A stretch of DNA of 64,000 nt. Source: Sedimentisphaerales bacterium. GTDB taxonomy: Bacteria; Planctomycetota; Phycisphaerae; Sedimentisphaerales; SM23-30. Shown here piece by piece: positions 6,123 to 17,954 of the stretch. The notes beneath the pieces are model-generated. The model did not search any database, was not told the origin of the DNA, and saw nothing but the letters and a program-made list of their open reading frames with translations. The position numbers and the translations under genes are program-made. Where the stretch lies: the NCBI GenBank assembly GCA_963666285.1, contig OY762711.1; one strand, 5' to 3'. Every line of letters starts with the position of its first letter. Positions within the stretch are counted from its first letter, which is position 1.

Positions 6123-7286
6123 TTATTGCTCAATAATTGCAGCCTGCAGTGAAGTATCCGCATCAATATGTGTGTATCCTTGAACAACAACCATATCACC
6201 ATCATTTACCCCGTCGCTTACAACCAGATCATCCTGCCCGTAATAGCCCGCAAGCTTAATAAAACACTTACAGGCTTTCTGACTAGATTCAGAATAGAGC
6301 CATATAAAAGATTTCTCTCGCTCATTTAACACACAACTTTCAGGAACAGTTATTGATTGCCTCTGAGAATTATTCGGTTCTATAATTACGTTAGTACTCA
6401 TCCCAGGCATAATCTGGATATCAGACAAATTTGGCATGGAAAAAGTCAACCTGTACGTTTTAGTTACAGGATCAGAACCTATTTGCCATTCAACTAGTTC
6501 CGCAGAAAAAATACGATTAGAAAAAGCGGGAAACGTTACTGATCCCTGAAGATCTTGAGATAACTTGTAATCAGCAATTTTATTTTCCGGAACAAACACA
6601 TCAATTTCTAAAATTGAGATATCCTGAACAACCAGAACTGTTGTTCCGGCATTGACAATTTCGTAATTCTCGACGAACTGTTCGGAGACTATACCATCAT
6701 AAGGAGCCCTAAGTTCTGTATCCTGCAATTGATGCCTGGCTATTACCAACTGAGACTCCACTGCTTTCAATCCAGCTTTTGCAGCAGCCAAAGCGTTAAC
6801 TGCATGATCATAATTTTCCTGAGTAGTAACATTCTCATTAAATAATTTACTACTCCGCTTATAATCCTGCTTTGCATTCTCCAACTGAGACTGCACACTT
6901 TCCTTCTGAGCCATAAGAACAGCAATCCTGTCCTGAAAATCACGAGGATCTATCTGAAGCATTAATTGACCTTCTTTAACCATATCGCCAGGCCTAACAT
7001 CAAGCTTTACCAATGGACCGGAAACTCGAAATGCCAGCTTAGTTTCAACACTCGATCTTATTGTGCCAGGATAGGAACATGACTCGGCAATTGCATGAGC
7101 TTTGACTTTTAATACTGTCACAGGCATCGCTGTCGCAAAGTTTGCGGCATTGTTACTAAGTTCTTCACCTGCTTTTGCTGATGACTTATTAGCCGCAACA
7201 AAGACTCCAACACAAACTGATATCGCAACAATATAAATCACTACCTGTTTTACTAGCTGTCGAGTAGGCATGTCGCCTCCTTTCAT
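6123..7286 (-). CDS. RND periplasmic adaptor (membrane fusion protein); native start is ATG at 7981 (exon 1 = 7981-7978, exon 2 from 7258)
   Basis: N-terminal TM, LAFRVSGPL, LRAPYDGIV, IMPGMS; spliced N-terminus MKLVKQVVIY; unspliced alternative starts at 7286 and 7271. Confidence 0.93.
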   Translation of the reverse strand: MKGGDMPTRQLVKQVVIYIVAISVCVGVFVAANKSSAKAGEELSNNAANFATAMPVTVLKVKAHAIAESCSYPGTIRSSVETKLAFRVSGPLVKLDVRPGDMVKEGQLMLQIDPRDFQDRIAVLMAQKESVQSQLENAKQDYKRSSKLFNENVTTQENYDHAVNALAAAKAGLKAVESQLVIARHQLQDTELRAPYDGIVSEQFVENYEIVNAGTTVLVVQDISILEIDVFVPENKIADYKLSQDLQGSVTFPAFSNRIFSAELVEWQIGSDPVTKTYRLTFSMPNLSDIQIMPGMSTNVIIEPNNSQRQSITVPESCVLNEREKSFIWLYSESSQKACKCFIKLAGYYGQDDLVVSDGVNDGDMVVVQGYTHIDADTSLQAAIIEQ

Positions 7287-7977
7287 TAATTTAACAAATT
7301 CTGAGTTTCATTATATTTTGTGCAAGGAAACGCATGCCCCTCACTGAACCGGACTTGAAGATTTCCCTCATCCGGCTCTTCATTAATGCTCACTTTGACG
7401 GCTACATAAGGCAAAGTAATGTGCCTTGTAGAAGTCTCCGATAGAAGACGCTGTGGAACGTTCATGGTTTCTTCCAGTTCAGTGCCTGGCCAATATCCTG
7501 TTTCGCCTTTACACATTAATGCTGACCCCTTCGAGTGCCTCAAACTTCGAAACTCAACAGGCATTACCCTGTTTACTCCTCTACTATGAGTCAGTCCGAC
7601 TACCAAAATGCCATACGGCCGCGTCACGGTTTCAGCTCCTTGGCCGCTTCCTTTCGGAGCACTTCGGTTCTCCCAAGTTCCAATGCAGTCAGTTCGTTTG
7701 CCCGCTACGGACTCAGACCCCGGCTCGTCGATAGATGCTCGCCGTATTTCGCATATATCGATATTGGCTTCAGGCATATGAAAACCCTGGCCCGGATGCG
7801 ATAAGGAATAATTTCGGGGCTCAACACCTTCACTTGCGTTGTGGCTGACAAACTCCTTTCCCGGGGCTTCGTACAGTTCGTTACCTCTCTGCACGCCCGG
7901 TGCTGTAATGGGCGGGTGGCTAGCCCTTACCCATGCCGGATTGGCCGGCTTGACTACATTAGCTTCGCTTGGCGCTC
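7259..7977 (-). mobile_element. ORF-less group II intron (IIB-like, 719 nt)
   Basis: 5' GAGCG; EBS1 UCAUAU (7781-7776) in a stem-loop, complementary to exon end AUAUGA; D3-like GUCGGACUGACUCAUAGUA..GAAGGGGUCAG; D4 closed by CAUUAAUG; D5 GAGCCGGAUGAGGGAAAUCUUCAAGUCCGGUUC (7378-7346); D6 GAGGGGCAUG/CAUGCCU-A-CUC with bulged A at 7265; ends in AC; removal restores the host frame. Confidence 0.93.
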
Positions 7978-8110
7978 TCATATTTTATTTCCTTAAATAT
8001 TTTCTTTTCCAAAAACAACCACAGTATTTCAAAATAGCATAGCCCAAAGCCATCATTGATATTACTAATACAAACAAACTACACTATCATTCAAATGAAA
8101 TGCTTTATTC

Positions 8111-15325: not shown

Positions 15326-15871
15326 TTATCTTTTCTCATCTGCTGCCATATCTCGAACACCCTGGGTGTCCATACCGGCCCTTACCAGTACCCGGGATGT
15401 TCTCGGCAAGGTATAGCTGATCTTATTATCTGACCGGGCAAGGGCGACATTCTGCGGGGTGACACGAGTGCCGCCGGAAGTAATTATCGGGTCATAAACG
15501 GCGGTATTGTCCTGGTTCTTCGCCTCAATTGTAAAAAAGTATGCCTCGTCACCCGCAATAGTGCCGCTATTGTCTTTACCATCCCAGCGGGCAGAATGTA
15601 CGCCTGCCGGGCGGCTGGTCCAGTCCTGCAAGAGCTTTATCTGTTCCTGCTGCGGGCCGTAGATGATGATACGCGTCTGGGCATCGTCGCTGAGTGTGTA
15701 TTTGATGCTGGCATATTGACCTGCCGAAGAAATGTTCAGCTCTGTCGGGAATGCCATAACCTGGTCGATTTTGAGGGTTTCGGCTGACAACTGCTGCGGC
15801 ATAAGCAATAATGCCAAAAGGGCAATCCCGGAAAACCAGCATTTTGTATTTATCTTTTCAATCTCTATCAT
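15326..15871 (-). pseudogene. Secreted FlgD Ig-like domain protein, probably 3'-truncated
   Basis: Signal peptide; IKYTL..AGVHSARWDGKDNSG..YFFTIEA; a second repeat (ISYTLP..VLVRAG) breaks off. Confidence 0.65.
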
Positions 15872-15932
15872 AATATTTCCTTGTTAATATACAATTATGT
15901 ACATCTTTTAGACCCTTTAATTCTCCATATAT

Positions 15933-16175
15933 TCAAGTAAAATGTACGCGTTGAATTAGAAGCAATACCGAAATCAGTGTAAATACAAACAAAAACATTT
16001 CAATAACACTTCCTCTTCCAAATATTTTCATAAGCCATATGTATATTAGCACAGAAAATATACTAATACATATATCCCATTTTATACTATTTACGCTTAA
16101 GAGACCATGTATAAGCAAAATCATACTCAATACTATTTCAAGCATATAATCTTTTAATATATTTAGTGTTTTCAA
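15933..16175 (-). CDS. Small membrane protein, putative Rhs immunity paralog 2
   Basis: 80 aa, hydrophobic; near-identical paralog of 16219-16461. Confidence 0.7.
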   Translation of the reverse strand: MKTLNILKDYMLEIVLSMILLIHGLLSVNSIKWDICISIFSVLIYIWLMKIFGRGSVIEMFLFVFTLISVLLLIQRVHFT

Positions 16176-16218
16176 GGGTAACCTTCATTCTTGTATTTAC
16201 TATAATTATTTAGCATGC

Positions 16219-16461
16219 TTAAGAGAAGAAAATGCGTTGTATCAGAAGCAATAATGAAACCATTGAAAATGCAGCCATAAACATTTCAATAGCACTTCCT
16301 CGTCCAAATATTTTCATAAGCCATATGTATAATAGTACAGAAACTAAACTAATACATATATCATATTTTATGCTATTCACGCTTAAGAGACCAGGTATTA
16401 GCAAAATAACACTCAACACTATTTCAAGCCTATAATTTTTTAATAAATCAATTATTTTCAA
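16219..16461 (-). CDS. Small membrane protein, putative Rhs immunity paralog 1
   Basis: 80 aa, hydrophobic; just downstream of the Rhs C-terminus; AGAAAGGAAAG RBS upstream. Confidence 0.7.
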   Translation of the reverse strand: MKIIDLLKNYRLEIVLSVILLIPGLLSVNSIKYDICISLVSVLLYIWLMKIFGRGSAIEMFMAAFSMVSLLLLIQRIFFS

Positions 16462-16539
16462 TAGTAACTTTCCTTTCTTATTATAGGTACTATTATCACT
16501 CTATTTTCACCAATACGGCTAATTGTGACTTTCTTATTC

Positions 16540-17954
16540 CTAATTACCGGACATCTCATCCTCAGTTTGCCAATTATCATATAAAACATAAGAAGTACCA
16601 GCAGCAATTGTTGGTACGCTCCACCCGATTCCATCAAGTAAATAATCATGAGCATGTCCCTTAAATAATTCTTTTTGGGTCATTTGTCTTAAGCCACCTG
16701 TGGTAGCATCGTATAATTGACCATAATAAAATTCACCTGTCTGAATATTATATGCTCCTGGACCGGGGGTTCGCAAAATACCAGTTTTATTTTGAACGTA
16801 GGATAAAGGGCTTCTAATTTTGGGCTTAATCAAACCTGATGGGTTAACTTCTACAGTGTGCGTTGTTCTACTTGGTTTTACAAAAGTTTTAGAAACTCGA
16901 CCAAATGTAGTTTCAGGTAATTGGGTCTTTTCAAGTGCCCAACCAGAATACCTACCATTAAGAAAACCACTTGATTCAATTCCAGCTTTTCCAGCCTCAT
17001 CAGTTAAATGAATAGCAGAATTAGTATAACGAACAAAATCATCAGAAAATTGTGCTGCACCATACTTCATAGCCTGTTTTGCTGCTAACTGAGGAAATAC
17101 TTTTACACTTGTCATTCCTAGAAGCTCGGCAACTTGAGCTTCACCACCTGTTGCTAAGAATAATGTTAGTTGAAGAGTATAATCCAATGCTCGAACTGTG
17201 GTTGCCTTAAGACTTTCTTTATACCACTTTAATTTTTTGACATCTTCAAAAAATTCTCTATATTGCTTTGCTGTTAAACCATGAGAATCTATAAATATAG
17301 TATCTTTTCTTTTGTCATATATTGCTCGATCAAGTGAATCAGCTATCTCACGACCATTTTGGCTATACGTCTGAATGGCCATTGAACCAGATTCCATATA
17401 CATATGAAGAACCAATGCACCTTCTTTAAAAGATAATAAATCACCCAAGCATTTAATTCGTTTATCATCAGGAACATAAGGTTTGTTTTTCCAATGTTCT
17501 ACAAAGTCCTTGCTCATCTCCAACCCCAGCGGATCGGTACCATTCACGCCCATGTAGGCGTTGTAGAGGTTTAGTCCGTCGGCGAATTTGCCCGTGCGGC
17601 TTCGCACCCTGCCGGGTCTTCGCTGAGCCATCGACCGTGGAGCGGGTCGTACTCGCGGAAGTGGGTGTGGTAGAGGCCGGTGAACTGGTCGCGATACATG
17701 CCGCACCATCCGAACGGGATGAATTGCGAGCGGCCGAGGTTGACAGCGGGAGCATCGAGACGCATTTTTGGTACATCTACTGTGCCGGTAGAGTCGTAAG
17801 CTTTGCATAGTCCAGTTGAATTGTAAAAGAGCTTTTCGATGACATTCCCGGCAGTGTCAGCCACACCGACTATTGTGCCGCGATCATCGCGAATCGGGAC
17901 ATAACCAAATTTCTGGCCCGGGCAGTCCGGATCATCATACCGTTCAATACACAT
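16540..17954 (-). pseudogene. Orphan Rhs core tip + C-terminal toxin domain, frameshifted
   Basis: Frame A: PFGWCGMYRDQFTGLYHTHFREYDPLHGRWLSEDPAG; frame B: FADGLNLYNAYMGVNGTDPLGL + ~325-aa CT; joined by removing 20 nt (17587-17606); GC drops after DPLGL. Confidence 0.85.

Follow-up and report, generated by a model that had tools for sequence, protein, structure and literature searches.

What allows an intron inserted one base past a start codon to be read from that codon almost to its far end: chance, inheritance, or a need to let ribosomes pass? The question is raised by an ORF-less group II intron of 719 nt (positions 7259–7977) in the window, the 64,000-nucleotide stretch of contig OY762711.1 analyzed here; the intron and its host gene lie, with all their parts, on the reverse strand. 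The intron matches the Rfam models RF02005 (112.2 bits) and RF00029 (52.3 bits) above the gathering threshold in both cases (40 for RF00029), with the D1 match of RF02005 beginning 33 nt from the intron 5′ end, and its boundaries were deduced from eight genomic copies with differing flanks. These copies, all in the same genome and each at most two bases different from that in the window, are without exception inserted after ATGA, and excision of the intron rebuilds ORFs of 86–515 aa at seven of the eight sites. The 5′ exon ends in IBS1 (ATATGA, 7978–7983), which contains the host ATG (7981–7979) and one further base, and EBS1 (UCAUAU, 7776–7781) forms 5–6 bp with IBS1 in all eight copies. A candidate EBS2 of anti-Shine-Dalgarno-like sequence (UUCCUU, 7803–7808) pairs in 8/8 copies with the host Shine-Dalgarno (SD) sequence (AAGGAA, 7989–7994, in the window) and may aid start-codon targeting; the duplex energies with the eight 5′ exons range from −4.0 to −6.8 kcal/mol, figures that come without a null and at varying offsets. 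The intron 3′ end, AC, follows the AY rule, and the 5′ end is GAGCG (U2 to A) versus GUGYG, the ends being precise in the eight copies. The 3′ exon (6123–7258) encodes an RND efflux periplasmic adaptor (MFP; TIGR01730, 235.7 bits at a cut-off of 94.9), the spliced product of which has 379 aa. D5 with its AGC triad (7346–7378) was placed by Rfam match and fold, and the end of D3 plus a D4 remnant (7382–7537) can be read in the IEP frame, the N-terminus of the IEP being retained and the remainder deleted. The candidate partner IEP (L011), the closest relative among the IEPs, consists of 443 aa in an intact ORF with a YADD motif and has RVT_1 as its sole Pfam domain below an E-value of 0.001. Four read runs, none of them established as RNA from the source organism, were examined over all contigs; the one RNA run contained only 85–95% relatives and no spliced joint, and says nothing either way.

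According to the initial annotation, the unspliced RNA is open for 231 codons from the host ATG. All coordinates of this frame (7286–7981) were confirmed, from ATG 7981 to the TAA at 7288–7286; dinucleotide shuffles of the span had a mean of 11.0 stops and were stop-free in 0 of 20,000 cases, and the remaining two frames contain 15 and 20 stops. The accompanying chance estimate of 1e-5 is arithmetically right, but its null model is wrong because most of the openness is supplied by inheritance from a family-wide stop-free register, to which the host ATG has become fused. The further suggestion that the last third of the frame is an IEP remnant holds in part for D4 and fails for D5–D6: the D4 part matches the N-termini of three of five related IEPs best in this frame (scores 38, 34, and 28, versus at most 22 in other frames), and two of the five gave no signal. 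The encoded peptide found no match in Pfam and NCBIfam. A search of predicted proteins returned 252 matches, which gene callers had derived from the same RNA. Of the 120 matches listed, a list ascertained on openness that includes the focal intron, 4 again show the lane fused to the 5′ frame, and one of these listed fusions is full-length at 70% identity. The protein search was kept out of the selection tests because such a search returns open frames only.

Relatives were instead gathered at the DNA level only. Genome contigs were screened with a D5 pattern (54 loci), metagenomes with a D6 pattern (23 loci), and genomes from the same order, class, and phylum with blastn; removal of partial loci and of duplicates exceeding 97% identity left 38 + 28 unique introns. 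For the first set, removal of such duplicates reduced 63 loci to 40, and 2 loci without anchor and 7 without D3 were dropped; one further locus with a D3 deletion (L009) was excluded from the pair tests, which comprised 37 introns. The 28 unique introns of the replication set came from blastn searches made once the register was settled, with 14 partial loci and 5 duplicates dropped. As a check, the initial annotation had proposed to look for the open host-ATG frame in homologous copies, and it had counted frequent in-frame stops there against its reading. Taken literally, such stops are what was found: of the 38 introns inserted at ATGA, 37 are closed no later than codon 52 (31 at codons 29–36, five earlier, and one at codon 52), and solely the focal copy is open, so that the host-ATG frame was rejected as a family-wide open unit. 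L009 and L010/L011 of the same genome are inserted away from gene starts, in repeats or at other sites outside genes, and the host-ATG register is closed in them by a stop at codon 6. As judged from the alignments, the conserved unit is an internal stop-free lane with a start of its own.

In relatives, this lane begins at intron nt 104–106, with AUG or GUG in 28/37 and 26/28 introns. The corresponding D1 hairpin (7861–7900 in the window), delineated by folds, alignments, and column counts, carries in relatives the stop of a 30-codon leader, the SD-like sequence GGAGGU 8 nt ahead of the internal start, and the AUG/GUG itself; in its fold, calculated for L017, the leader stop pairs with the strand bearing the internal AUG. 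In the focal copy the internal start codon (7874–7872) is GUA. Selection on the leader was rejected, since its stop counts show no deficit (8 vs. 10.1 expected in the first set, 5 vs. 7.4 in the replication set) and the association of an open leader with start-codon insertion was not significant on the tree (three independent pairs). At the other end, the IEP start could be located in 13 replication-set introns, and in 11 of these the lane terminates within −19 to +11 nt of it; a separate comparison gave a similar picture. Openness over 100 codons or more is seen in 23 of 38 start-inserted introns and in 21 of 26 at other sites, so that the lane does not hinge on host start codons. Rescue of the host gene, the outcome envisaged by the initial annotation, is not supported as the reason for the lane, given this equal openness away from start codons. 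Most likely, the lane would at first have served to deliver ribosomes to where the maturase begins and to cover nascent RNA. Rho is present in the genome, where two rho-like genes were found (G000:C1:5946911–5948155 and 1463841–1464959), one over and one below the TIGR00767 cut-off.

Similar arrangements occur in other introns. In a distant start-codon-inserted relative (L184) the lane continues without a frame change into the N-terminus of the IEP, and in another distant relative, on a Megaera plasmid (L210; CP113872.1, locus 397–2426), an ORF annotated with 163 codons stops 3 nt short of the IEP. The annotated ORFs of the latter tile the intron, with the 163-aa ORF and the IEP being followed by two small ORFs over D5/D6 up to the next gene, an order like that of an independent relay chain. 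Two sister lineages (L146–L162 and L167–L175) are retargeted to shared non-ATGA motifs and have mostly kept the lane; the D6 AUG is absent from them wherever the 3′ end is readable.

In the register by which the focal frame traverses distal D1, D2, and D3, introns of the first set have a mean of 0.86 stops and those of the second 0.18; the corresponding means for the remaining forward registers are 6.8 and 6.5 in the first set and 6.4 and 6.0 in the second. To part selection from inheritance, tips were paired on non-overlapping tree paths, and the expected numbers of stop/non-stop differences were calculated under a GTR+G model with site rates, in which base-pair covariation is ignored; 576 codon triplets shaped like the stop set, times registers, yielded 1,728 controls. 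In the replication set (14 pairs), 3 one-sided stops were observed and 38.7 expected in the lane register (observed/expected, O/E, 0.08), compared with 53/51.1 and 62/53.4 for the remaining forward registers (O/E 1.04 and 1.16) and O/E values of 0.72–0.98 in antisense. This deficit ranks 1 of the 1,728 controls, the lowest control set sharing no stop codon reached an O/E of 0.34, and 25 of the 28 introns are stop-free. In the first set (37 introns, 18 pairs), 21 stops were observed and 56.1 expected (O/E 0.35–0.37), the other registers having 67/71.1 and 71/71.9 (0.94 and 0.99). The real stop set was the most register-biased of the 576 and had the lowest O/E among 41 rare combinations; over nt 104–425 it ranked 8 of 1,728, weaker than in the replication set. 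Two antisense registers of the first set likewise dropped to about 0.5–0.6, and rare control sets had a median O/E of about 0.6–0.7 under the covariation-free model. Indel patterns, counted between the internal start and D3, have a net length that is a multiple of three in 12/17 and 11/15 cases, and in 15/24 when net-zero indels are excluded (p = 0.003; the patterns are not fully independent). Synonymous and non-synonymous changes had similar O/E values (0.97/0.94 in the first set and 1.01/0.88 in the replication set), and no codon-position pattern was found in the site rates (p = 0.94). With no third-position pattern, near-equal synonymous and non-synonymous values, and no known domain, no protein-coding selection on the lane was found; on these counts the constraint falls on stops and not on a protein. 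The premise of the initial annotation that ribosomes cross the ribozyme fits these data well, as a depletion specific for stops and for one register in two samples, together with the indels, makes selection for ribosome passage highly probable.

The lane is not kept everywhere. It is broken in 16 of the 37 first-set introns, among them the ORF-less copies in Pontiella and L049. The latter and ten near-identical loci of one MAG, eleven copies in all, bear an IEP, are located at ATGA, and have a weak D6 SD, a natural counter-example. Since it is broken in start-inserted members, the lane is dispensable for life at start codons. Among more distant introns a lane was detected at p < 0.05 in 4/25 cases vs. 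46/66 in the family, as estimated with rough fixed windows and with several of the distant introns being GC-rich; a lane general to all RF02005-type introns is thus unsupported.

At the 3′ end of the focal intron, D6 forms a stable hairpin (fold z = −5.8) with a bulged branch adenosine (A7265). It contains a surrogate start in frame with the 3′ exon (7269–7282), which consists of the SD AAGGAGG (7282–7276) and an AUG (7271–7269). Both elements are paired in the fold, the SD with the anti-SD strand CGUUUCCUUGCA (7332–7321) and the AUG within the basal helix, just as had been described in the initial annotation. Among introns with both ends available, 30/30 at ATGA or GTGA possess this SD and AUG vs. 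1/10 elsewhere, a distribution that reflects few independent changes. The focal lane runs into the D6 loop, where it stops 14 nt short of AUG 7271. Its TAA overlaps an ATG (7286–7284) that shares the MFP frame, as had been noted, forming the sequence TAATG (7284–7288). As a conserved coupling signal, however, this lineage-specific overlap was ruled out by its presence at 2 of the 29 loci that carry a D6 of this type and by the absence of an SD in front of its AUG (SD energy +0.2 kcal/mol vs. −11.6 kcal/mol for AUG 7271).

How the lane came to reach D6 can be followed in the ORF-less lineage of the focal intron. A 1-nt change in the D3 loop puts the lane in the frame of the retained IEP N-terminus, and past the IEP deletion it continues in the frame of D5 that is free of stops; with the stop at the D6 base gone, it traverses the anti-SD strand as far as the D6 loop. 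It is open from D3 onward in 8 of 11 members (L001, L017, L100, L103, L106, L108, L109, and L111), stops at the D6 base in L066, and ends just ahead of the SD in another frame in L101 and L112, which are frameshifted by a 10-nt deletion. In most IEP-bearing members the D6 base is closed by a stop, other ORF-less members carry stops in D4, and several start-inserted ones fall short of D6. A pair test of the D4–D6 extension gave 0 vs. 3.0 expected stops (P = 0.05; four pairs, with the focal intron unpaired). In the focal sub-lineage, one −1 and two +1 indels lead the host frame into the lane, as seen from a comparison of tips.

Other members of the family are present in the genome. L009 (G000:C1:1613560–1614207) is ORF-less, lacks D3 owing to a 71-nt deletion, has a D6 with the same TAATG, and is nearer to L010 at the 5′ end of its D1; it is probably dead and mosaic. 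L010 and L011 (G000:C1, near 5395400–5397267 and 910721–912650) are IEP-bearing introns with the EBS1 UUCUUAA and a broken lane, which would fit relaxed selection after retargeting. The former lies within AT-rich heptamer-like repeats and has the motif YADN, the latter has YADD. In addition, isolated fragments of the family are joined to unrelated DNA, namely the 5′ ~50 nt at L016 (G000:C1:5748538) and a 3′ fragment (IEP tail, D5, and D6) at L014 (G000:C1:4809754 region).

In translational coupling, an upstream ORF ends beside a paired SD and AUG. In contrast to such hairpin-mediated coupling, the upstream ORF would here be the catalytic RNA itself, selected just for the absence of stops. The ancestral role of the lane would be to supply the maturase start with ribosomes through translational coupling while ~400 nt of the nascent RNA stay covered. 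Where the intron is inserted at a start codon, the host ribosome would enter via the 30-codon leader, whose stop is predicted to pair with the internal AUG. In one ORF-less lineage, the D3-loop shift, the in-frame IEP deletion, and the loss of the D6-base stop would have extended the lane to D6, and in the focal sub-lineage more indels would have joined the host frame to the lane, with the internal AUG being lost. Ribosomes from the host ATG would then translate 231 codons while crossing the unspliced RNA, unfold D6 when they get there, and re-initiate at AUG 7271, which is preceded by the SD. The product of such a restart would be the host protein plus three N-terminal residues, which would therefore be obtainable without splicing, and the crossing would protect host-gene expression from polarity. 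A translated transcript would be unable to fold and splice, so that the two routes would exclude each other, and a ribosome-free transcript bound by a maturase supplied in trans (candidate L011) would splice. Sequence, folds, and selection statistics are observations; the translation, the melting, the restart, the anti-polarity effect, and the exclusivity with splicing are inferences. For the focal copy itself, a ribosome track via the host ATG, the unzipping of D6, and restart at AUG 7271 has somewhat better than even odds, and it appears about equally credible that this copy really serves to restart translation on the host gene. The broader reading, to which a probability of roughly 0.45 is assigned, is a lineage-wide switch between translation and splicing, in which a D1-started track that is blind to its peptide delivers ribosomes to the maturase, keeps the ribozyme from folding, and was rerouted by protein-less, start-codon-targeting offshoots to the hidden start in D6, allowing these to occupy the first codon of any gene while leaving it expressed.

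Three other explanations were weighed against the ribosome track. The lane might serve needs of the intron only, by feeding the maturase or shielding the RNA from Rho and nucleases, its reach into D6 being a leftover and the D6 start being used by breathing of the helix or de novo. This would agree with a lane that is open in 21/26 introns off start codons and ends at the IEP start, with the D6-base stop in most IEP-bearing members and the ORF-less start-inserted introns that fall short of D6, and with the weak result of the D4–D6 extension test. Against it, the lane crosses the D3 loop, the IEP deletion, and the D6 base without a stop in 8/11 members of the focal lineage, and the stable helix around the SD (z = −5.8) disfavors unaided initiation; a purely intron-serving lane is considered rather unlikely, if the most credible of the three.

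That no translation is selected at all, the ancestral ribozyme having been stop-free by chance and its structure having conserved this state, seems improbable. D5 is indeed stop-free in the lane register for structural reasons, the covariation-free model overestimates rare codons, and many members tolerate a broken lane; yet structure is blind to the reading register, the true stops beat every control in the replication set (O/E 0.08 vs. 0.34), indels preserve the frame, and the more distant introns mostly lack a lane (4/25 vs. 46/66). The replication test thus largely refutes an explanation by structure only. A functional peptide of 125–230 aa, for example an accessory splicing or mobility factor, is more improbable still: the 252 matching predicted proteins that could speak for it are gene-caller products of the same RNA, the slight synonymous excess in the replication set (1.01 vs. 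0.88) is accompanied by neither such an excess nor a third-position pattern in the first set, Pfam and NCBIfam gave no match, and members reach the lane end through differing registers.

Several known systems share parts of this arrangement. Specialized IIB1 (CL1) introns such as Avi.groEL and EcKTE56.groEL insert at initiation or termination codons, and the accessible part of the account describing them (PMC12584367) mentions neither a D6 surrogate start nor a stop-free lane. The focal intron likewise adjoins a start codon (8/8 copies at ATGA), but, unlike the introns in that partial account, it lacks a subdomain Ia of 300–700 nt, being 719 nt long in all, its partner IEP L011 has no endonuclease domain in contrast to their RT with a C-terminal endonuclease, and its targets are varied, non-housekeeping genes. 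With introns of classes E and F (IIE/IIF), as far as the available excerpts go (PMC3753933; PMC3552965), it shares an RT/maturase without En (L011), the YADD motif, a long structured D6, and RF02005, a likeness that rests on features and not on a class assignment by phylogeny; these excerpts report neither start-codon targeting nor a translated ribozyme, and the lane is for the most part absent from distant RF02005 or plasmid relatives. The focal frame is continuous from the 5′ exon via D1–D3 toward D4, like the exon-fused intron ORFs of organelles in the accessible sections of PMC3073962. It differs from these in being bacterial and in ending in an IEP N-terminal remnant instead of an intact maturase, and most of its relatives use an internal start, thereby coupling to rather than fusing with the IEP. 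According to the same sections, each bacterial IEP is equipped with a dedicated RBS located in a loop, and a stop directly past the 5′ junction bars ribosomes from most group I introns. Ribosomes have been described, in the available part of PMC3851717, to associate with the Ll.LtrB intron RNA and to protect it. The literature covered by the search describes no stop-free lane or D6 surrogate start in bacterial group II introns; what is added here is the controlled replication, together with the findings that the lane has a start of its own, finishes where the maturase begins, and also occurs in introns off start codons.

The usual view, as expressed in the accessible sections of PMC3073962, is that self-splicing introns bar ribosomes from their catalytic core. 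The focal ribozyme, in contrast, appears to be selected to admit ribosomes, the peptide being irrelevant. If this is true, it provides a mechanism by which a maturase is translated from within an RNA that must afterwards fold, and a mechanism for intron life at start codons, which is called unknown for the IIB1 clade in the accessible part of PMC12584367. It would also explain why metagenome annotations list spurious “hypothetical proteins” of ~131 and ~195 aa by the hundreds.

Elsewhere in the window, the region 15326–17954 contains two tandem near-duplicate ORFs of 80 aa (15933–16175 and 16219–16461). The fragments of this region resemble what we take to be an RHS-repeat core.
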